IMG/VR virus record: IMGVR_UViG_2606217174_000009
DNA from: a virus
Lineage: Duplodnaviria > Heunggongvirae > Uroviricota > Caudoviricetes
DNA length: 35,320 nucleotides
Strand: one strand, 5' to 3'
Below are positions 4,539 to 15,657 of this stretch, one piece after another (position 1 is the stretch's first letter; each line of letters starts with the position of its first letter). The position numbers and the translations under genes are program-made. The notes below the pieces were generated by a model, which searched no databases, was not told where the DNA came from, and was given only the letters and a program-made list of their open reading frames with translations.

Positions 4539-5138
4539 TATCGCGTCCTCAACAATGAATTTTGTGATGCGGTGCCTGGTGCCTCCAGGTGACGTTAACC
4601 AGTTAACAATTAACGCCGGATACAGAGAATCCACCCATAACACTGTTTTTGGTTTTAACTGTTCCGCGTGCGCTCAGCCGCATTCACCACATCACAAAAT
4701 TCACTTTAAAAAGGGCGGCAGAGCAGTCACGGAGTAAAACTGATACCGCCAAACGTCACCAGAAAATTGATAACAGAGGGCGTTACAGCGGGGTTGTCAC
4801 TTAAGCGTATGGTCAACCTGACAACCCGGTGTCCTCAACGGGGGAAGGAATACCCCCGCCATACTTACCGCCGCGCCATTTCGCGGATTGCCACAACCGG
4901 AAGCGCACGGTCGACGAAAATTTAACGACAGGCTATCTATGAACCAGCTACCTCGCCGTGCGCTTTCGCGTTATGGTCTGACTTTTCAGGGAAATATCCT
5001 TTCAGTAAACTGTCAATGCCGGATGCTCACCCGTGTCCGGCGCACGCACTCCACCTCACCCGTGGAGAACTCCTTAATTACTAACCTTAGCTTTGTTGAT
5101 TAGCTACTAACGCGGGTATGTAATCATTCTGGCAATGC

Positions 5139-5483: not shown

Positions 5484-5639
5484 TCACTCACCTGAGTTTC
5501 TTTCCAGCCAGCGACGGGCACCATTTTCGGTTTTAAACGTTTTGCTTTTGGTATACGTCATCGCAGTGAACGTACCGTCCTGGTTGGGGAACACGCCACA
5601 TACCAGAGATTCGCTGTTGCCAAGATCGATAGTATCCAT
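5484..5639 (-). CDS. Hypothetical small protein (51 aa)
   Basis: Internal ATG of ORF 5484..5720 preceded by AAGGGGAAATGAGG; the longer form from 5720 is also possible. Confidence 0.4.
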   Translation of the reverse strand: MDTIDLGNSESLVCGVFPNQDGTFTAMTYTKSKTFKTENGARRWLERNSGE

Positions 5640-5911
5640 GCTGACCTCATTTCCCCTTAACGCCGGGGTAGCGGAACAAAAACCTGCTGCATAGTTATTA
5701 AAGTTGAACCCTGCCGTCATGTTCTTACGCCTCGGGCTGGCTACTTAACCCCTGACCACTGCCGGGTAACTCGAAGTATTGCCCTGCATTCTGTGGGGCG
5801 GGGTGGGTTGGTATGCTGTTAAGGTAACAAGAGTTACCTTTCGAGTCAATACGATGTTGTAAAAGGTACATTTGAGAGCGTGAAAAACCCGCAATGAATG
5901 CGGGTTCTGAC

Positions 5912-6628
5912 TCAGTCTAAGTATTGATGTATTTGTGAAACTTTACCTTTAATGGTGTAACCACCATTCAGTTCGATGGGTTTGTAAAGCGGATTCAGTG
6001 ACAACAGATAGATGTTTGGTCCGTCAATCGCAACTTTTTTTAGTGTTACGTTTGGCGTTCCTTCCAATTGGATTAAGATTATTTTTCCCACCAGTTCTCT
6101 AATGTTACTTGAGCATGGTGTGATCAGCACGGTAGAACCGTCGGGGATGGTTGGGAGGCCGTTAGAGTTTGTCATCGCATCTCCCTCAACATGCAATAAA
6201 AAAGAGTTTTCAGCGGTTTTTGTCATGACATCAACCCAATTCTTAATGCCAGGAATCTCGGTTACTGGACAACTCATATCCCAATAACCAGCCTGTTCCC
6301 ACGTTAAAACGGGCAACCGGGCGATGTTGTCACTAATGTAAGGATACTGATTCAGACGCAGATCATCGGTTTTATCGTGACCGTCCTTTCCATAAAGAAT
6401 CCATTCAGGAGATTTGGAAAGCAATTTTGACAGTAGATGCAAATTCTCACCGTCAGGTTTTGAAGAGCCATTTTCCCATTTTGTTACGGATACACGAGAT
6501 ATGCCGATTGCTTTCGCAACCTGCTGTTGGGTTAATCCAACGTCTTTTCGACGATTCCGAATACGTTCGCTGATAGTGTTTTTCATGTAACCAATGTTAC
6601 TACCAAGTGATGTTGCTATGGTTGACAT
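5912..6628 (-). CDS. CI-like prophage repressor (N-terminal HTH, C-terminal S24 LexA-like peptidase domain)
   Basis: HTH segment GLTQQQVAKAIGISRVSVTKWENG; C-terminal S24-like region; divergent from a cro-like gene; start set at ATG 6628 (MST..., possibly leaderless), alternative ATG at 6586; the ORF-track start at 6685 is TTG. Confidence 0.85.
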   Translation of the reverse strand: MSTIATSLGSNIGYMKNTISERIRNRRKDVGLTQQQVAKAIGISRVSVTKWENGSSKPDGENLHLLSKLLSKSPEWILYGKDGHDKTDDLRLNQYPYISDNIARLPVLTWEQAGYWDMSCPVTEIPGIKNWVDVMTKTAENSFLLHVEGDAMTNSNGLPTIPDGSTVLITPCSSNIRELVGKIILIQLEGTPNVTLKKVAIDGPNIYLLSLNPLYKPIELNGGYTIKGKVSQIHQYLD

Positions 6629-6648
6629 TCCTATGTAACTATTGTTAC
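6587..6648. promoter_or_regulatory. Candidate operator region: two palindromes GTAAC-N4-GTTAC plus a TTGACA -35 hexamer
   Basis: GTAACCAATGTTAC at 6587-6600 and GTAACTATTGTTAC at 6635-6648; TTGACA at 6622-6627 on the plus strand; lies between divergent repressor and cro-like genes. Confidence 0.5.
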
Positions 6649-6677
6649 CCTCCTGCTCGAAATAACAGGAGAGTTTT

Positions 6678-6893
6678 ATGTTCAAAGATGATGTTCTGCG
6701 CTATTTCAAAAAAAAGCGACTAGTAGCTGAGGCTCTTGGAATTTCACATGTGGCTGTTGTGCGGTGGAAAGCAGTTATTCCCAAACTTCGCGCAATGGAA
6801 CTGGATGAAATTACTAACGGTGAATTGAAATACAACCCAGAACTTTACAAGAAGCAGGATAGCACCTCGAACGAAGGAAAGAATGATTCATGA
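6678..6893 (+). CDS. Cro-like HTH regulator
   Basis: 71 aa; HTH segment RLVAEALGISHVAVVRW; AGGAGAG SD; divergent from the repressor. Confidence 0.75.
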   Translation: MFKDDVLRYFKKKRLVAEALGISHVAVVRWKAVIPKLRAMELDEITNGELKYNPELYKKQDSTSNEGKNDS

Positions 6894-7315
6894 AAATCAA
6901 GCATGAACACATCCGCATGGCGATGAATGCCTGGGCGCATCCGGACGGTGAAAAAGTTCCGGCAGCTGAAATAACCAGGGCTTATTTTGAACTGGGTATG
7001 ACGTTCCCGGAACTGTATGACGACAGCCATCCGGAAGCCCTGGCTCGCAATACCCAGAAAATTTTCCGCTGGGTGGAGAAAGACACCCCTGATGCAGTTG
7101 AAAAAATTCAGGCGTTGTTACCAGCGATCGAAAAGGCAATGCCACCTTTGCTGGTGGCCAGAATGCGCAGCCACAGTTCAGCTTATTTTCGGGAGCTGGT
7201 GGAGACGCGGGAGCGACTGGTGAGAGACGCTGATGATTTTGTCGCAGTGGCAATCGCCGGTTTCAATCAGATGAACCGTGGTGGCCCGGCAGGAAATGCT
7301 GTGGCAGTGCATTGA
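6890..7315 (+). CDS. YdaT-like / CII-like early regulator
   Basis: 141-aa ORF overlapping the cro-like stop (ATGA); position and size match a lambdoid cII analogue; family assignment from memory only. Confidence 0.5.
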   Translation: MKIKHEHIRMAMNAWAHPDGEKVPAAEITRAYFELGMTFPELYDDSHPEALARNTQKIFRWVEKDTPDAVEKIQALLPAIEKAMPPLLVARMRSHSSAYFRELVETRERLVRDADDFVAVAIAGFNQMNRGGPAGNAVAVH

Positions 7316-9319: not shown

Positions 9320-12300
9320 ATGAGTGATGATAGCTATAAATTTCAAAAGTTAACGCCGTTCAGCGATGTTGAGCTGGGTGTATATAAAAATGCGATAGAT
9401 TTTGTTTTTGCCAATAACGATCTAAAAAATGTTGCGATATCAGGGCAATATAGCGCAGGAAAAAGTAGTCTTATCGAATCCTATAAGAAAAGTCATTCAA
9501 ATATAAAGTTTGTTCATATCTCACTTGCTCATTTCAGATCGATTGAGGAAGCTGAAACTAATGAACCAAGTAAAGATATAAATGAAACCGCGTTAGAAGG
9601 TAAAGTTCTTAACCAGTTAATTCACCAAATTAATGCTGATGATATTCCCCAGACACATTTTAAAGTAAAGAAAAAAATAAAAACTAACAACATTGTGATA
9701 AACACCATCTTTACGGTGTTATTTATCGCTATGATACTACATATCACGCTATTTAATAAGTGGGAAAAGTTTGTTTCACTTTTATCTGAAGGTAATATAA
9801 AGACACTACTTACATTATCAACTAAATACGATACGCTTTTAATTAGTGGGTTTATATGTACTATCCTATCTTGTATTTTCATTTACAAGTTAATAAAAAC
9901 TCAAAAGAATCGTAATGTTCTTAAGAAAATAAATTTACAGGGTAATGAAATAGAGATTTTTGAAGAAAGTAACGAGTCTTATTTCGATAGATATTTAAAT
10001 GAAGTATTGTACCTTTTCGAGAACGTTGATGCTGATGCCATTGTTTTTGAAGACATGGACCGTTTTAATAGTAATAACATCTTTGAACGTCTTCATGAGG
10101 TTAACAGACTGGTTAATATTCAACGGGACACAGCAGGGCACAAGAAATCGACGTTACGTTTTATTTACTTGCTTCGTGATGATATCTTCATTTCGAAGGA
10201 TAGAACCAAATTCTTTGATTATATCATTCCAGTTATTCCTGTTGTTGATAGTTCTAACTCTTACGATCAGTTTATCACACATTTTGATGGTGGTGGTATT
10301 CTCAAGTTGTTCAATGAAAGATTTCTACAAGGGATGTCTTTATATATTGATGATATGAGAATATTGAAGAATATTTATAACGAATTTCAAATTTATTATA
10401 ACAAATTAAACACGACAGAACTTGACTGTAATAAAATGTTGGCCATTATTGCCTATAAGAATATTTTCCCAAGAGATTTTAGTGAGTTGCAACTTAATCA
10501 AGGTATGGTTTATACCATATTTAGTGAAAAAGACAACCTTATTATTGAAGAAATAAAGAAAATAGAAAAAGATATTAGAGATAGAAAAAAAGAGATTGAG
10601 GCAATCAATGATGAAATACTCAACTCTAGTCAGGAGGTTGATGCTATATACGATAAGGAATTATCTAGATATAATAATCATCCTCACTATAATCAGGCTG
10701 AGAAAGCTGATATAGCAAAGAGAAGGGCGGCTAGAAAAGAAAGTGTTGAAAATAAATTTAATGGTAAAATAGAAGAAATTAATGAGCTTATATCAAGATC
10801 AAGAGAAAGTTTGGTTGATTCTAGAAACAAAAGACTTAAAGAAGTAATAACTAGAGAAAACATTGATGAAATATTTAAACTCACCTATACCAATGAAATT
10901 GGAGAGGAAAGAGACTTTAATGAAATAAAAAGCAGTGAGTATTTTGACTTGCTTAAATACCTTATTCGTGATGGTTATATTGATGAAACCTATACCGACT
11001 ATATGACCTATTTTTATGAAAATAGCCTGAGTCGAATTGATAAGATGTTTTTACGCAGCATTACCGATCAAAAAGGCAAAGAGTTCACTTATCAACTCAA
11101 GAACCCCAAACTGGTCGTTGCCCGCCTTCGAGAAGTGGATTTTGAACAGGAAGAGGCGCTTAATTTTGATTTATTAGCTTATCTGCTTCAAACGCCAGCC
11201 CAGGTAAACTTAATAAAACGTTTATTCAAACAACTAAGAAAAGATAGAAGAGTTGAGTTTATTCGTGGTTACTTTGAAACTGAGAGGGCTCAGCCTGTCT
11301 TCATTAATCGATTAAATACACAGTGGCCTGAGTTTTTTTCTTATGCGCTGACAGAGAGTGAATTTTCTGCTGATTGGGTTAAACTCTACTCTATAGGCAC
11401 GTTTTATTATTCTGCCAATGACGCCATCGAGGCCATTAATATTGATGATTGTCTGACTGATTACATCTCTGATTCGGCAGGTTATTTAGCAATATCAGAA
11501 CCGAAGGTTGACAAATTAATTAGTGGTTTTAAGTTGCTTAACGTCTCTTTTGTCAGTATTAAATTTGAAAACGCAAATAAAGTACTCTTTGATGCGGTTT
11601 ACCAGCATTCACTTTATGATATTAATTTTTCCAACCTGACCTTAATGCTGAGTAAGGTTTACACGCTTAATAGTGAAGATGATATTCGCCATAAGAACTA
11701 TACACTAGTGATGTCACAACCTGATTCTCCCTTGGCTAGTTATGTTAATAACCATATTAGGGACTATCTGGATATGGTTTTATCTAGTTGTGATGGTTCA
11801 ATCGTGGATGATGAATCCATTGTTTTATCCGTTCTTAATAATGAGGGAATATCTGATGAACAAAAAGGCCAGTATATAAACGCTTTGCAAACTTTCGTGA
11901 CATCTCTGAGTGAGGTTGAGAGCGAATCTTTATGGTCATCTTTGTTGGATAAAGATAGAGCAGTGTGCTCTGAGGAAAATATTGTCTCTTATTTTGAACA
12001 TGTTGATGGACTGGATGACTCACTTATCGAATTTATCAATAGAACTGATGTAGACCTGAATTTTCAAAATATTAATATTGATAACGAGCTTAAAGGTAAA
12101 TTATTTAAATCGATTGTTATCTGTAATGATTTATCAAATGATAAATATGAAAAATTAATTTGCTCACTAAATATTATTTGTAAAACATCCTTTAGCGCTA
12201 GTAATATCGCGAGTGATAAGTTCAAAATATTAGTGGATAAAAATATTATTCGTATGAATGTTGCGCCACTTAATTTCATACGAGATAACTATTCAGAGCA

Positions 12301-12691
12301 ACTTTCCTATTATATTCATAAGAATATCAGGGCATACGTTGAATTAATGACGATTGATAACTTTATTTTGGATGAGGCTATATCAATACTTTCTTGGAAA
12401 GTTGATGATGATTTGAAAGTTAAGCTACTCGAGTTTGTTAAAACTCCGTTGGCTATTTATAGTAAGAATTACTCTCAGGTCGTTAATGACTATATTTTAG
12501 AAAATAATTTTAAACCAGATGAACTTCTAATCTTGACGTCATCTTATAAAACTTGGGGAACCTCTACTCAGTCGCTCATCTTGAGTCGAGCAATACAGGA
12601 TATATCAGCATTGATAGCAAGTCCTAATGATGTTTCTGAACCGTTACTAAAAAAACCTGTTTGTCGCAGAGGGACTGAATATGCAGAATAA
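9320..12691 (+). CDS. KAP-family P-loop NTPase (1123 aa) with transmembrane insert
   Basis: Walker A GQYSAGKS (aa 42-49); two hydrophobic helices (about aa 124-146 and 172-192); Walker B-like IVFEDMDR (aa 241-248); long C-terminal region with a charged coiled-coil-like segment; strongly AT-rich. Confidence 0.8.
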   Translation: MSDDSYKFQKLTPFSDVELGVYKNAIDFVFANNDLKNVAISGQYSAGKSSLIESYKKSHSNIKFVHISLAHFRSIEEAETNEPSKDINETALEGKVLNQLIHQINADDIPQTHFKVKKKIKTNNIVINTIFTVLFIAMILHITLFNKWEKFVSLLSEGNIKTLLTLSTKYDTLLISGFICTILSCIFIYKLIKTQKNRNVLKKINLQGNEIEIFEESNESYFDRYLNEVLYLFENVDADAIVFEDMDRFNSNNIFERLHEVNRLVNIQRDTAGHKKSTLRFIYLLRDDIFISKDRTKFFDYIIPVIPVVDSSNSYDQFITHFDGGGILKLFNERFLQGMSLYIDDMRILKNIYNEFQIYYNKLNTTELDCNKMLAIIAYKNIFPRDFSELQLNQGMVYTIFSEKDNLIIEEIKKIEKDIRDRKKEIEAINDEILNSSQEVDAIYDKELSRYNNHPHYNQAEKADIAKRRAARKESVENKFNGKIEEINELISRSRESLVDSRNKRLKEVITRENIDEIFKLTYTNEIGEERDFNEIKSSEYFDLLKYLIRDGYIDETYTDYMTYFYENSLSRIDKMFLRSITDQKGKEFTYQLKNPKLVVARLREVDFEQEEALNFDLLAYLLQTPAQVNLIKRLFKQLRKDRRVEFIRGYFETERAQPVFINRLNTQWPEFFSYALTESEFSADWVKLYSIGTFYYSANDAIEAINIDDCLTDYISDSAGYLAISEPKVDKLISGFKLLNVSFVSIKFENANKVLFDAVYQHSLYDINFSNLTLMLSKVYTLNSEDDIRHKNYTLVMSQPDSPLASYVNNHIRDYLDMVLSSCDGSIVDDESIVLSVLNNEGISDEQKGQYINALQTFVTSLSEVESESLWSSLLDKDRAVCSEENIVSYFEHVDGLDDSLIEFINRTDVDLNFQNINIDNELKGKLFKSIVICNDLSNDKYEKLICSLNIICKTSFSASNIASDKFKILVDKNIIRMNVAPLNFIRDNYSEQLSYYIHKNIRAYVELMTIDNFILDEAISILSWKVDDDLKVKLLEFVKTPLAIYSKNYSQVVNDYILENNFKPDELLILTSSYKTWGTSTQSLILSRAIQDISALIASPNDVSEPLLKKPVCRRGTEYAE

Positions 12692-13003: not shown

Positions 13004-13601
13004 CGCTGAAACTTACGCAGATAATCTGACTTTTTCCCAGTTGACGAGTACACCTAGGTGTTCGTGAAGCCCTCAGTGTGTTGGGACAGATGCGAGCGTC
13101 CGCTCTTCGCTCAAAGCGGCCTAGAAGGTTAGCTTGCGTCGGACTTGGCGTATTTAAAGAAGTGCTGGTGGTGACTGGTTGTTGTGTTCCATTTCTACAG
13201 AACAAAATCACAGAAACTATACCCAATAGTTGTATTGAATCACTGACGAGACAGCCTCATATTTATCAGGACTGGTGTACGTCCAATACAGGAGGTTGTG
13301 GTGCTGGTTCTCAAATGTGCGCTGGCTATTGCTGCTGTAATGGCAATTTATTGCCTTGCTGTTGTTCTTATGGATCGCCTTTCTGACTGATTTCATATTG
13401 GCGAGGTGACGGGAGTTAAGTAGAATGGCTGCGGGTGCTTGAGGCTATCTGTCTCAGGCATGAACACCAACGGCAGATAGAGAAAAGCCCCAGTTAACAT
13501 TACGCGTCCTGCAAGACGCTTAACATTAATCTGAGGCTCAATCTATGAACGGCAAATCTAGGTTAGCCTCTTACGTGCCGAAAGGCAAGGAGAAGCAGGC
13601 T

Positions 13602-13757
13602 ATGAAGCAGCAAAAGGCGATGTTAATCGCCCTGATCGTCATCTGTTTAACCGTCATAGTGACGGCACTGGTAACGAGGAAAGACCTCTGCGAGGTACGA
13701 ATCCGAACCGGCCAGACGGAGGTCGCTGTCTTCACAGTCTACGAACCTGAGGAGTAA
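13602..13757 (+). CDS. hok: Hok/Gef-family type I toxin
   Basis: 51 aa MKQQKAMLIALIVICLTVIVTALVTRKDLCEVRIRTGQTEVAVFTVYEPEE matches the Hok/Gef family; AAGGAG SD; in-frame upstream ATG at 13545 gives a 70-aa mok-like extension. Confidence 0.85.
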   Translation: MKQQKAMLIALIVICLTVIVTALVTRKDLCEVRIRTGQTEVAVFTVYEPEE

Positions 13758-13922: not shown

Positions 13923-14573
13923 ATGAATGAAAATCAGTTAGCTCCTTGTTGGGAATTTCAACCTTATCTTGCTGAAAGCAATGTTCGCCAGTTGTTGGCG
14001 GAGATCGCTAACGTACTTGAGCAGTTGTACTATCATAAGCACGTATTAGACAGCAACTGGTCTGAAGGTGTAAGGGCTTATGATTGGGTCAGAAACCATC
14101 TTATTCAAAATGAAGGCGCAATTCCTGGTCTTAAGATGATTTCCAAGGGGTTGGACTATGTAGTTGCTTTAAATAAAGTTCCGCTACAATTTACCAAAGA
14201 TTGCATTAATAACCCCAAAAAGAAACATCGCCTGCGTCGAAATAAAGTAGAGCATGAGCAGCTTTCATTGTTTGGTGATGTTGAGGCTGAGCAAGATATT
14301 ACATGGCGAGTCATAGCGGAGCCATTTTTATCCGAAGAGGGAGATGGTGAATTAGAGTCCACACTGCCTCGTTGGGAGGTGGCTCTTGTTGGGTTTAATA
14401 TCTATGGTGCTCAGATTAGTATGGTTTCTCATCAATCTACAGCATCAATGCCACTTATGCCCCTTGACGGTAACACACTCCCTGGCGAAGCGGAGATTAA
14501 TAAGGTGTCTCTTCGTCGGCGTACGAAGGATAAAATTTTGGATGTGAGCAGTAATGGAACATCAGGTGAATAA
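13923..14573 (+). CDS. Hypothetical protein (216 aa) coupled to the downstream XRE/ImmA gene
   Basis: AT-rich ORF; 3' end overlaps the downstream gene by 20 nt; TTGACA at 13859-13864 with an AT-rich -10-like hexamer about 18 bp downstream; no recognisable domain. Confidence 0.6.
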   Translation: MNENQLAPCWEFQPYLAESNVRQLLAEIANVLEQLYYHKHVLDSNWSEGVRAYDWVRNHLIQNEGAIPGLKMISKGLDYVVALNKVPLQFTKDCINNPKKKHRLRRNKVEHEQLSLFGDVEAEQDITWRVIAEPFLSEEGDGELESTLPRWEVALVGFNIYGAQISMVSHQSTASMPLMPLDGNTLPGEAEINKVSLRRRTKDKILDVSSNGTSGE

Positions 14574-15657
14574 CTTCACTGAGTATCGAGGCGATAAGCT
14601 CAAACTAGCAAGAATGGCTGTTGGGCTTTCATGTGAAGAGTTGGCCGAAAAAATTGGCAAAACAAAACAATTCGTTAGCAAATTGGAGAAGGGATTTAGG
14701 CCATCAGAGCAATGCCTGGAGTTAATAGCCTCAGCTCTTATGATTAAGCCCGATTTTCTATTTACTGAGCGAAAATATGCTCTGGAAAGCGATGTTTGCC
14801 ATTTTCGGAGTAAGAAGTCCAGGACTCAAACGCTGACTAATAGTGTCTTGGCCAGGGCTGAGATTCTTAATATTATAATTTCTGCTGTTGAAGGTGAAAT
14901 CGAATTCCCTGATGTCAACATACCAGAGCACCCAGGAACTGAATTACTTACCCCGAATGATATTGAGCGAGTGGCAGAAGATTGTCGCCGTGCATGGAAT
15001 CTAGGTCTTGGCCCTATATCATCAATGGTGAAATTGGCGGAGAGTTTGGGGGTAATCGTTGCGCATGTTACGGGAGTCGATGATCGTGTTGATGCATTCA
15101 CTGTTCACAATAACAGGCCTGTTATTATCAGGAACAATGTAAAAAAAAGCATATGTAGATTTCGCTCTGATTTAGGTCATGAGTTAGGGCATTTAGTAAT
15201 GCATGAGGGCATAACTACTGGTGATAAACTTACGGAATCACAAGCTGATCACTTTTCTAGCGCCTTATTGGTTCCTAGGCTATCTTTCATTAAAGAATTT
15301 CCACGAATACGAGGTAAGCAATTCGATTGGAGTGCTCTGGTTGAATTTAAGCTTAGATGGAAAATTAGCCTTAAAATGTGTATTTATCGAGCCAGTGCAT
15401 TAGGACTATTGACCCAGGAACAGGCAAGAACTGGCTATATGCATCTTAATTCTAGAGGGTACACGAGAGTTGAACCAGGTGATGAACTTTTGCGCCACGA
15501 AGAACCAAGTATGCTGTCCGAAGCGATTGACATGCTGGATGATGCAACTTGGTTAAGAATTCTTATGAAAACTGGCTTGAGTCAAGATTTAATTCGTGAG
15601 TTGTTCTCCATCAATCGACCTATTACAAATCCAAGAAATATTTTTCAGATTGTTTGA
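14554..15657 (+). CDS. Fused HTH-XRE / ImmA-IrrE family zinc metallopeptidase
   Basis: N-terminal HTH (LSCEELAEKIGKTKQFVSKLEKG); central HEXXH motif (HELGHLVMHE) typical of ImmA/IrrE (COG2856) peptidases. Confidence 0.8.
   Translation: MEHQVNNFTEYRGDKLKLARMAVGLSCEELAEKIGKTKQFVSKLEKGFRPSEQCLELIASALMIKPDFLFTERKYALESDVCHFRSKKSRTQTLTNSVLARAEILNIIISAVEGEIEFPDVNIPEHPGTELLTPNDIERVAEDCRRAWNLGLGPISSMVKLAESLGVIVAHVTGVDDRVDAFTVHNNRPVIIRNNVKKSICRFRSDLGHELGHLVMHEGITTGDKLTESQADHFSSALLVPRLSFIKEFPRIRGKQFDWSALVEFKLRWKISLKMCIYRASALGLLTQEQARTGYMHLNSRGYTRVEPGDELLRHEEPSMLSEAIDMLDDATWLRILMKTGLSQDLIRELFSINRPITNPRNIFQIV

Follow-up and report, generated by a model that had tools for sequence, protein, structure and literature searches.

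A probable new-specificity member of the P22/lambda CI–Cro immunity switches beside a Qin-type operon

The window, by which we mean the whole stretch of 35,320 bp of viral DNA that was analysed, carries a repressor gene on the minus strand (boundary at 6586 or 6628, depending on the start codon) that diverges from a cro-like gene on the plus strand starting at 6678 (Table 1). The 91 bp between them correspond to intergenic distances of 90–93 bp in relatives. The repressor combines an N-terminal HTH_3 domain (Pfam, E 2.2e-16) with a C-terminal, LexA/S24-like Peptidase_S24 domain (E 1.1e-16), and aligns with lambda CI over residues 11–217. Rightwards, cro is followed by a gene for a YdaT-family protein. 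Leftwards, beyond the repressor gene, lies an operon that contains, besides the DicF RNA gene, a DUF1391 (ydfA-like; Pfam) gene, ydfC and dicB, as taken from the annotation of a near-identical locus.

Table 1. Features of the immunity region and its surroundings, in window coordinates
Feature	Position	Strand	Basis or remark
DicF sRNA gene	4713..4764	−	Rfam RF00039, 76.7 bits; within the leftward operon, the putative target of PL/OL control
PL extended −10, TGT+TACCTT	5821..5829	−	17 bp after −35
OL1, third perfect GTAAC-N4-GTTAC	5824..5837		between PL −35 and −10
PL −35 hexamer, TTGACT	5844..5849	−	sequence and relatives
OL2, degenerate, GTACC-TTTT-ACAAC on the minus strand	5856..5869		positional homology with OL2 of L063, L064, L066 and group 1
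Intrinsic terminator, hairpin and T-run after the repressor gene	5883..5907	−	fold −18 kcal/mol, z −5.1
Repressor gene, probable corrected start, 224 aa, MKNTISERIR...	5912..6586	−	start from comparison
O3, GTAAC-N4-GTTAC	6587..6600		adjoins repressor ATG; 1.85 bits per position
Candidate PRM −10-like hexamer, TAACAT	6594..6599	−	inside O3; read from sequence; ends 7 nt before ATG, C at −1
O2, degenerate, GTTGCTATGGTTGA on the plus strand	6612..6625		6/10 arm positions; overlaps PR −35; 1.37 bits per position
PR −35 hexamer, TTGACA	6622..6627	+	geometry relative to O2 alike in all groups
Upstream in-frame ATG, 'MST...'	6626..6628	−	PGAP choice; probably unused
O1, GTAAC-N4-GTTAC	6635..6648		between PR −35 and −10; 1.81 bits per position
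PR extended −10, TGT+TACCCT	6643..6651	+	18 bp after −35; relatives TACCTT or TACTAT
Shine-Dalgarno (SD) sequence AGGAG for cro	6667..6671	+	6 nt before cro ATG
Cro-like gene, 71 aa, P22_Cro family	6678..6893	+	Pfam PF14549, E 2.9e-16; resembles phage 21 Cro sequence
ATGATT-N6-AATCAA	6883..6900		cro/ydaT junction; one mismatch from published YdaT operator
YdaT-family protein gene, functional analogue of CII	6890..7315	+	Pfam PF06254, E 7.4e-10; PMC9986795

A simple sigma-70 consensus scan of positions 5600–7000, which requires four of six matches per hexamer, returned no promoter and did not pick up the terminator that follows the repressor gene either. The PR extended −10 falls below this threshold; the −10 hexamers of PR and PL match three of six consensus positions each and depend on the TGn extension. 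Promoters were placed by hand and by comparison, and the terminator was confirmed by folding, with a hairpin and T-run at the equivalent place in relatives. As read from the sequence, O1 and O2 overlap PR, and PRM is a putative promoter. Placing a promoter in the O1–O2 or O2–O3 spacer was rejected because these spacers are the least conserved stretches.

An earlier note on this DNA had pointed to paired sites, GTAACCAATGTTAC at 6587–6600 and GTAACTATTGTTAC at 6635–6648, 48 bp apart from start to start, with a TTGACA at 6622–6627 between them in the gap of the divergent genes, and all of these are present. It had called the sites perfect 14-bp palindromes, which overstates their symmetry: the inverted repeat comprises the 5-bp arms only, and the central 4 bp, CAAT and TATT, are not self-complementary. 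The search for further GTAAC-N4-GTTAC copies that it proposed uncovered a third perfect site, at 5824–5837, which it had overlooked. The three exact matches in 35,320 bp compare with 0.02 expected, and at least three occurred in none of 100 shuffles. All three flank the repressor gene, the third just past its end in the expected place of a left operator, where it sits beyond the terminator between TTGACT and TACCTT, relatives being arranged likewise. Tolerating one mismatch added no site in the window, and the 16 two-mismatch matches, against about 11 expected, are scattered, with no single one significant. A degenerate middle site at 6612–6625 had also escaped the earlier note, whose picture of two sites has to be given up even as its operator role for the repeats holds: judged from the sequence, the switch is a classical one with a three-site right operator (O1, degenerate O2 and O3) and left operators.

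This layout recurs in related loci. Group 1 is formed by 24 loci in which the repressor has the helix SRVSVTKWE: the window, phages ZF40, AH07 and vB_EcoS-733R5, and genomes of about 15 genera. Sites lie at −62 (O1), −39 (O2) and −14 (O3) from the ATG in 23 of the 24 and 3 bp further upstream in the other (L024), and most of these loci have one or two further sites past the repressor stop. More widely, equivalents of OL1 are found 38–121 bp past that stop in most relatives, and five closer relatives share the operator layout. The window O2, at −39 to −26, has the same offset as better-preserved O2 sites in relatives. In a footprint alignment of 27 distinct related loci, drawn from many Enterobacterales, conservation at the three right operators (Table 1) contrasts with 0.39 bits per position in the O2–O3 spacer; among the E. 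coli alleles examined, variation falls in the spacers and spares O1 and O3 altogether.

Operator arms and recognition helices also change together. Sites of the form GTAGG-N4-CCTAC occur at the same offsets in 18 loci with the helix NRVTVTGWE (group 2). CTAAG-N4-CTTAG sites are found in nine loci with SDVTVGYWE, or SGVAVGYWE in two of them (group 3), and TTAAG-N4-CTTAA sites in phage 21, with SNVAISQWE; the Cro helices change in parallel with operator type and repressor helix. Fixed offsets in 27 distinct loci, covariation between half-site and helix, and overlap with promoter-like elements that face cro and the leftward operon support an operator function of the repeats in a CI-like/Cro-like switch. 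On this comparative evidence they are probably real repressor and Cro operators of an ordinary P22-like prophage switch.

The same loci bear on where the repressor starts. The earlier note had opened the reading frame at an ATG, beginning MST..., for which it saw no obvious SD; this ATG exists at 6628–6626, lacks a usable SD and is the RefSeq/PGAP start, but comparative data speak against it as the real one. On the opposite strand this codon reads CAT, made up of the CA that ends TTGACA, the PR −35 hexamer, and the next T. Many relatives have a TAG stop at the MST codon, those with TTGCTAT there having it in frame, and in 12 of the 24 group-1 loci no in-frame start lies upstream of the MK position. 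Codon positions 1, 2 and 3 hold 1.45, 1.36 and 0.58 bits in the coding part, whereas no third-position wobble is seen in the putative extension, whose peptide shows much weaker conservation than the residues that follow MK. An ATG directly follows the 14-mer in 23/24 group-1 and 18/18 group-2 loci, and the start codon is ATG in every locus of both groups. The N-terminus that begins with MK matches that of P22 C2, which, with all other phage homologues, begins at this position. Tblastn alignments that seemed to back an N-terminal extension were dropped, the 'NIGYM' match being translated operator DNA. Given this overlap and the TAG codons of relatives, the MST start is most likely spurious and merely reflects the PR −35 hexamer of the opposite strand. 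The true start is probably ATG 6586–6584 (MKNT...), 14 codons downstream of the annotated one, which flags a likely systematic 14-codon over-extension in the RefSeq annotation of this gene.

Three other accounts deserve weighing. That the repeats are chance matches, or sites unconnected with a switch that serve, for example, recombination, restriction or methylation, can draw on the shortness of the units (10 specified bases) and on the scattered two-mismatch matches, which exceed the chance rate in the window; it is scarcely credible given three perfect copies where 0.02 are expected, all around the repressor gene, offsets that stay constant over dozens of loci in different genera, and arms that co-vary with the HTH recognition helices. 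The annotated 238-aa product could instead be real, translated from ATG 6628–6626 with O3 and O2 inside its coding sequence and a promoter at or beyond O1. PGAP picks the MST start in all E. coli copies examined, an extension of 14–16 codons, with ATG or GTG at or near the MST codon, is open in every member of the window's clade, and an ATG 14 codons upstream is also found in ZF40, L006, L008 and L009. We nevertheless consider this product improbable: to its overlap with TTGACA+T, the in-frame TAG and absent upstream starts in relatives, the lack of codon periodicity, the poorly conserved peptide and the MK start of P22 C2 and other phage homologues are added the absence of a −10-like element 7 nt upstream of 6628 and a sole purine run (AGGA) that touches the ATG with zero spacing.

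The remaining alternative concerns the repressor transcript. A leaderless mRNA, which the earlier note had suggested, is plausible, but it had been attached to the wrong ATG; the likely one, 6586–6584, adjoins O3. No AGGA, GGAG or GAGG lies within −17 to −4 of this ATG in the window or group 1, and the −10-like hexamer inside O3 has equivalents at the same place, TAGGAT in group 2 and TAAGAT in group 3. Leaderless-type repressor mRNAs have precedents by 5′ RACE in CP-933P paaR2 (PMC8630535) and PY54 cI (PMC4488713). With operators and MKNT start as we place them, the mRNA might still be leadered, its promoter lying upstream of O3 or being a PRE-like one near 6883–6900 that YdaT activates, O3 then acting as a roadblock or a block to translation initiation. 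The candidate PRM has no recognisable −35 match, and in group 2 an AGGA 8 nt upstream of the repressor ATG, at SD distance, makes leadered translation possible; in group 3 the ATG lies about 22 nt (21–34) beyond the operator, often with an SD-like purine run just upstream. The YdaT-operator-like repeat at the cro/ydaT junction (one match in the window against 0.17 expected) recurs at the equivalent position in L066, L064, ZF40, L008 and L009, and marks 6883–6900 as a candidate site for a PRE-like establishment promoter: CP-933P has its YdaT operator, TTGATT-N6-AATCAA, at this junction, together with PRE (PMC9986795). A leadered mRNA is unlikely all the same. An SD that could serve such a transcript is missing from the window and from group 1; the O2–O3 spacer, needed for its −10, is the least conserved stretch; TAnnAT is kept inside O3 in three specificity groups despite differing arm bases; the ATG lies exactly where TAnnAT predicts the start in groups 1 and 2; and PRE-type and leaderless PRM transcripts can coexist, as in lambda.

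Our preferred reading, to which we assign a probability of about 80%, is that 6587–6677, 91 bp in length, forms the right operator/promoter region of a P22-type (lambdoid) prophage immunity switch with a new specificity. We regard it as a putative new-specificity member of the P22/lambda CI–Cro switches because of the fixed offsets, the covariation of half-site and helix, and the phage 21 layout. Dimers of the repressor (P22 C2-like HTH plus S24 domain) would bind GTAAC-N4-GTTAC. With O1 over the extended −10 of PR (TTGACA-N18-TGnTACCCT) and O2 over its −35, occupancy would silence cro, the YdaT-type CII analogue and the replication genes; OL1 and the degenerate OL2 would act likewise at PL (TTGACT-N17-TGnTACCTT), which would drive the ydfA-like/dicF/dicB/exo/xis/int operon. 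O3 would hold the TAACAT of the repressor's own promoter and abut ATG 6586–6584, so that Cro, or excess repressor, bound there would halt repressor synthesis. The maintenance transcript would most probably start within a base of the A of this ATG and be leaderless, like those of lambda cI, CP-933P paaR2 and PY54 cI, and the P22_Cro-family protein would read the same sites as the repressor. Transcripts from PR and PL are predicted to start at about 6658–6660 and about 5812–5814, respectively.

The switch resembles several known systems to different degrees. As in the immC region of P22 and phage 21, left operators follow the repressor gene and 5-bp arms surround a 4-bp centre, xTAAx-N4-xTTAx; the Cro belongs to Pfam P22_Cro, and, of the solved structures, those of P22 C2 (1adr, 2r1j; E about 3e-12) come nearest to the repressor N-terminal domain. 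The window differs from immC in its strongly degenerate O2, its YdaT-type CII analogue and the Ala that replaces the catalytic Ser. Phage 21, with P22-type immunity, also has O1 and O3 48 bp apart from centre to centre and OR3 at the c2 ATG, but its operator arms (TTAAG versus GTAAC in the window), repressor helix (SNVAISQW versus SRVSVTKW) and Cro helix (SDAAVSQW versus SHVAVVRW) are different, its C2 is only about 36% identical to the window repressor, and its 14-mer ends 2 nt before the ATG that the window 14-mer touches.

Lambda shares the divergent repressor and cro, the tripartite OR, the OL beyond the repressor gene, a repressor start without SD and with a −10-like element just upstream, and a C-terminal domain with which the window repressor aligns, including the Ala-Gly cleavage site and Lys. 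The operators are unrelated, with a core of 14 bp in the window versus 17 bp; the window Cro fold family is the all-alpha P22 type, and the window Ala aligns with lambda Ser149. Operator centres in lambda lie at about −19, −42 and −66 from the transcript start, whereas those of the window would lie at −7.5, −32.5 and −55.5 if the transcript starts at the ATG, roughly one helical turn closer. With O2 then near −32.5 rather than about −42, lambda-style activation cannot simply be assumed. The perfect-consensus O3, moreover, leads one to expect strong self-repression, and how a lysogen keeps up repressor synthesis is unexplained by the model.

CP-933P (O157:H7, paaR2/ydaS–ydaT) likewise has a compact intergenic switch (97 bp versus 91 bp in the window) and a YdaT-type CII analogue, and the window carries its one-mismatch copy of the YdaT operator at the same place. 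PaaR2, however, is not an S24-domain protein, the CP-933P repeats are four of 18 bp with another consensus (GTTTAGTAA), and its Cro is of the YdaS type; the window Cro scores 18.5 bits for YdaS_toxin, against a cut-off of 30, and lies above the P22_Cro cut-off. An O157 locus considered for comparing geometry with the RACE-mapped CP-933P promoter was set aside because it belongs to another prophage, whose repressor gene is leadered. The leftward operon, finally, holds the set of E. coli K-12 Qin (DUF1391 (ydfA-like) gene, ydfC, DicF RNA and dicB), and, since this set lies under OL/PL, the window repressor would take the role that DicA has in Qin. DicA itself is short, consists of an HTH domain only and has another operator, whereas the window repressor is full length, its S24 domain altered by a point change of the catalytic Ser.

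Of the features needed for RecA-stimulated self-cleavage, the Ala-Gly site and the Lys are present in the window repressor, but the catalytic Ser is replaced by Ala (GDAM versus GNSM in lambda). This change bears on inducibility and not on operator binding. Ala is the dominant repressor allele in E. coli, with ST131 and O111 strain 11128 among its carriers, and operators, Cro and CII analogue are intact; a natural Ser allele also occurs, as in strain OkiPb01697. A literature search for non-cleavable CI variants returned nothing relevant. We tentatively raise the possibility that this common module is a non-cleavable, SOS-blind switch, kept because it silences toxic early genes, DicB and DicF included; its repressor mRNA would in addition be leaderless, with the strongest operator lying over the start codon. 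If so, any induction would have to bypass self-cleavage, for instance through an antirepressor or a protease.

Of 5,426 complete E. coli genomes, 702 (about 13%) carry this immunity type, ST131 and O111 strains among them. A megablast search against phage genomes retrieved no phage with the immunity region at high identity, the flanks alone being matched, and our literature search met no paper on this immunity type and none with the operator sequence or WP_000103684. The lambda/P22 paradigm is conceptually unchanged by the locus, with two possible exceptions: the Ser-to-Ala repressor and the very tight packing of operator and start codon. The map of operators, promoters and starts proposed here provides a basis for work on superinfection immunity, prophage induction and control of the division inhibitors DicB and DicF.

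A pattern count gave three copies of GTAAC-N4-GTTAC in the window's 35,320 bp, where 0.02 would be expected: the pair O3 and O1, 48 bp apart, and a third copy at 5824-5837, OL1, which the earlier note had overlooked and which emerged from the wider search that it proposed. Allowing one mismatch gave no extra site in the window, and two-mismatch matches were near chance in number. The pair had been described as perfect 14-bp palindromes; inverted symmetry is exact in the 5-bp arms but absent from the central four bases, so that the description was overstated. The TTGACA reported between them is present, as the predicted −35 of PR, the rightward promoter toward cro.

O1 lies between the PR hexamers, supplying the TG and TA of the extended −10, and the degenerate O2 overlaps the −35. 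Transcription is expected to start at about 6658-6660, which would give a cro leader of about 20 nt. At the predicted leftward early promoter, PL, OL1 takes the position that O1 has at PR, a geometry common to all groups of relatives considered here (group 2 having a better −10, TACTAT). A simple consensus promoter scan missed PR and PL because their −10 hexamers match at only 3 of 6 positions. Phage 21 likewise has 48 bp between O1 and O3 and an OR3 adjoining the c2 ATG, making the window's design P22-like.

Features of the switch and its surroundings
Feature	Position	Strand	Detail
Exonuclease, excisionase, integrase	in order left of dicB
DUF1391 (ydfA-like) gene, ydfC, DicF RNA, dicB	in order left of terminator		DicF from Rfam
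Terminator hairpin	directly left of repressor gene		strong
OL1	5824-5837
Predicted PL extended −10	5829-5821	−	TGT+TACCTT, 17 bp after −35
Predicted PL −35	5849-5844	−	TTGACT
OL2	5856-5869		degenerate
Repressor		−	HTH_3 + Peptidase_S24
G-D-A-M codons	6166-6177	−	Ala codon GCG at 6168-6170
O3	6587-6600		GTAACCAATGTTAC
O2	6612-6625		degenerate
Predicted PR −35	6622-6627	+	TTGACA
O1	6635-6648		GTAACTATTGTTAC
Predicted PR extended −10	6643-6651	+	TGT+TACCCT, 18 bp after −35
cro-like gene	6678-6893	+	P22_Cro family; AGGAG Shine-Dalgarno 6 nt upstream
YdaT-family protein	6890-7315	+	downstream of cro-like gene
Replisome organiser, then DUF977 protein	after YdaT-family gene

The nearest phage repressors, those of Pectobacterium ZF40, Pantoea AH07 and E. 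coli vB_EcoS-733R5, have 42-44% identity, and a one-genome-per-species scan for related repressors yielded 55 further loci. Relative to the repressor ATG, GTAAC-type sites stand at −62, −39 and −14, exactly the window's offsets, in 23 of the 24 loci defined by the helix (V/I)SRVSVTKWE (group 1); those of one group-1 locus, L024, are displaced 3 bp upstream. Five closer relatives (repressor identity 67-90%) share the window's layout. Most group-1 loci carry one or two additional sites soon after the repressor stop, downstream of a terminator, flanked by a TTGAC(A/C) −35 and a TAC-initiated −10. Across 27 distinct sequences, information content is 1.81, 1.37 and 1.85 bits per position in O1, O2 and O3, versus 0.39 in the O2-O3 spacer; variation among the examined E. 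coli alleles reaches the spacers but never O1 or O3. The arms co-vary with the recognition helices of both proteins, as would be expected if repressor and Cro read the same operators. Together with the fixed offsets, this comparison favours the earlier proposal that the repeats would be operators common to the CI-like and Cro-like proteins.

Operator arms and recognition helices
Group	Loci	Repressor helix	Cro helix	Operator
Window clade + group 1	24	SRVSVTKW	SH(V/P)AV(V/C)RW	GTAAC-N4-G(T/G)TAC
Group 2	18	NRVTVTGW	SHASVSGW	GTAGG-N4-CCTAC, offsets same
Group 3	9	SDVTVGYW (SGVAVGYW in two)	(S/T)PEA(V/F)YQW	CTAAG-N4-CTTAG
Phage 21 (P22-type immunity)	1	SNVAISQW	SDAAVSQW	TTAAG-N4-CTTAA

Several lines point to ATG 6586-6584 (MKNTISERIR..., 224 aa) as the probable repressor start. 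This codon adjoins the O3 14-mer without a gap in 23 of 24 group-1 and 18 of 18 group-2 loci, and the resulting N-terminus agrees with that of P22 C2. PGAP, and with it the earlier note, chose ATG 6628-6626 (MSTIATS..., 238 aa), and the extension does remain open throughout the window's own clade; yet 12 of 24 group-1 loci lack any in-frame start codon upstream, and TAG stands exactly at the −14 codon in many. The 14 extra codons carry 1.11, 1.31 and 1.36 bits at positions 1, 2 and 3, with no third-position wobble, versus 1.45, 1.36 and 0.58, with wobble, for the first ten codons of the shorter frame, and their peptides are poorly conserved among close relatives compared with the residues that follow. 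ATG 6628-6626 exists because of the PR −35 hexamer on the opposite strand: it complements the CAT of TTGACAT. We consider the 238-aa form improbable. An apparent 'NIGYM' protein similarity, considered as support for it, is O3 translated. The RefSeq/PGAP annotation (5912-6628) would be 14 codons too long in all copies examined (238 aa, for example WP_000103684/6/7), the extra codons being O3, O2 and PR −35 DNA in translation.

The suggestion that the start may be leaderless is improbable at ATG 6628-6626 and plausible at ATG 6586, where we give it a probability of roughly 60%. No Shine-Dalgarno sequence was found 5′ of that ATG; TAACAT (6599-6594), inside O3, ends 7 nt before its A, and a C at −1 makes the context favourable for initiation. 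At the corresponding place group 2 has TAGGAT and group 3 has TAAGAT; the pattern TAnnAT is thus retained despite differing operator arms. The ATG stands exactly at the start predicted from TAnnAT in groups 1 and 2, and about 22 nt (21-34) further on in group 3, often with an SD-like purine run just 5′. By 5′ RACE, CP-933P paaR2 (PMC8630535) and PY54 cI (PMC4488713) mRNAs are leaderless, and both papers also call lambda cI leaderless. Against a leaderless start, no −35 was found for the candidate repressor promoter, the O2 centre would lie at about −32.5, versus −42 in lambda, and the perfect O3 site predicts strong self-repression. A second repressor transcript, with a leader, is likely. The repeat ATGATTCATGAAAATCAA at 6883-6900 (ATGATT-N6-AATCAA) is one mismatch from the YdaT operator TTGATT-N6-AATCAA, which was mapped to the ydaS/ydaT junction of CP-933P (PMC9986795). 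Its place, precisely where cro stops and ydaT starts, is that of the YdaT site and a PRE-like promoter in CP-933P, and it recurs there in ZF40 and four other relatives (L066, L064, L008, L009).

Divergent genes, an HTH and S24 repressor, a P22-type Cro, a tripartite OR and an OL agree with a P22/lambda-type switch; the one departure is that Ala replaces the S24 catalytic Ser. GDAM aligns with lambda CI GNSM at Ser149 (relatives, G(E/D)SM), and the Ala-Gly cleavage site and catalytic Lys are retained. A Salmonella relative shares the Ala of the window and of the ST131, O111 11128 and C8 alleles (those fetched from among the 702 switch-carrying E. coli genomes); 70 of 76 cluster representatives have Ser, as does strain OkiPb01697, which carries a rare E. 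coli allele. The substitution predicts a repressor unable to self-cleave, which the SOS response could not inactivate. Elsewhere, 14554-15657 (+) encodes a protein that joins HTH_3 to a Peptidase_M78 (ImmA/IrrE-like) domain, after an ORF of no assigned function (13923-14573). ImmA-type proteases cut repressors in other mobile elements; a connection with the predicted non-cleavable repressor is pure speculation.

The switch sits in a lambdoid E. coli prophage. Complete E. coli genomes with its 131-bp switch region number 702 of 5,426 and include ST131 and O111:H- 11128; no genome in the phage collection searched carries it. Directly 3′ of the replication genes lies a YobI-like P-loop NTPase (1,123 aa, 9320-12691, +), which may be a defence gene, followed by a hok/sok-type sok RNA (13433-13607, Rfam 107 bits). 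Lysozyme (24004-24537) and Mom-family (27616-28548) genes are enclosed by a pair of oppositely oriented genes for NanS-p-like sialate esterases (SASA + DUF6645; 20414-22396, +, and 29861-31915, −), an arrangement suggesting that the late region is rearranged or that two prophage remnants meet tail to tail. Just 5′ of the first esterase gene are three tRNA genes (19689-19935) and STnc100 (20043-20240).

The leader from PL to the DUF1391 gene (5725-5815, −) contains stretches kept even in the distant relatives L006 and L063, one of them, ...GTTAAGTAGCCAGCC(C/T)GAGGC..., immediately 5′ of that gene's ATG. They may represent a nut-like or some other RNA element; the leader has no Rfam match at the gathering threshold. 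The DicF sRNA gene (4713-4764, −; Rfam 76.7 bits) shares the leftward operon with dicB and ydfC, so the OL/PL operator would have cell-division inhibitors under its control, the role of DicA in Qin. The switch is a new, previously uncharacterised specificity of a well-known type; no surprise to a specialist, its map is useful for annotation of, and work on, these common prophages.
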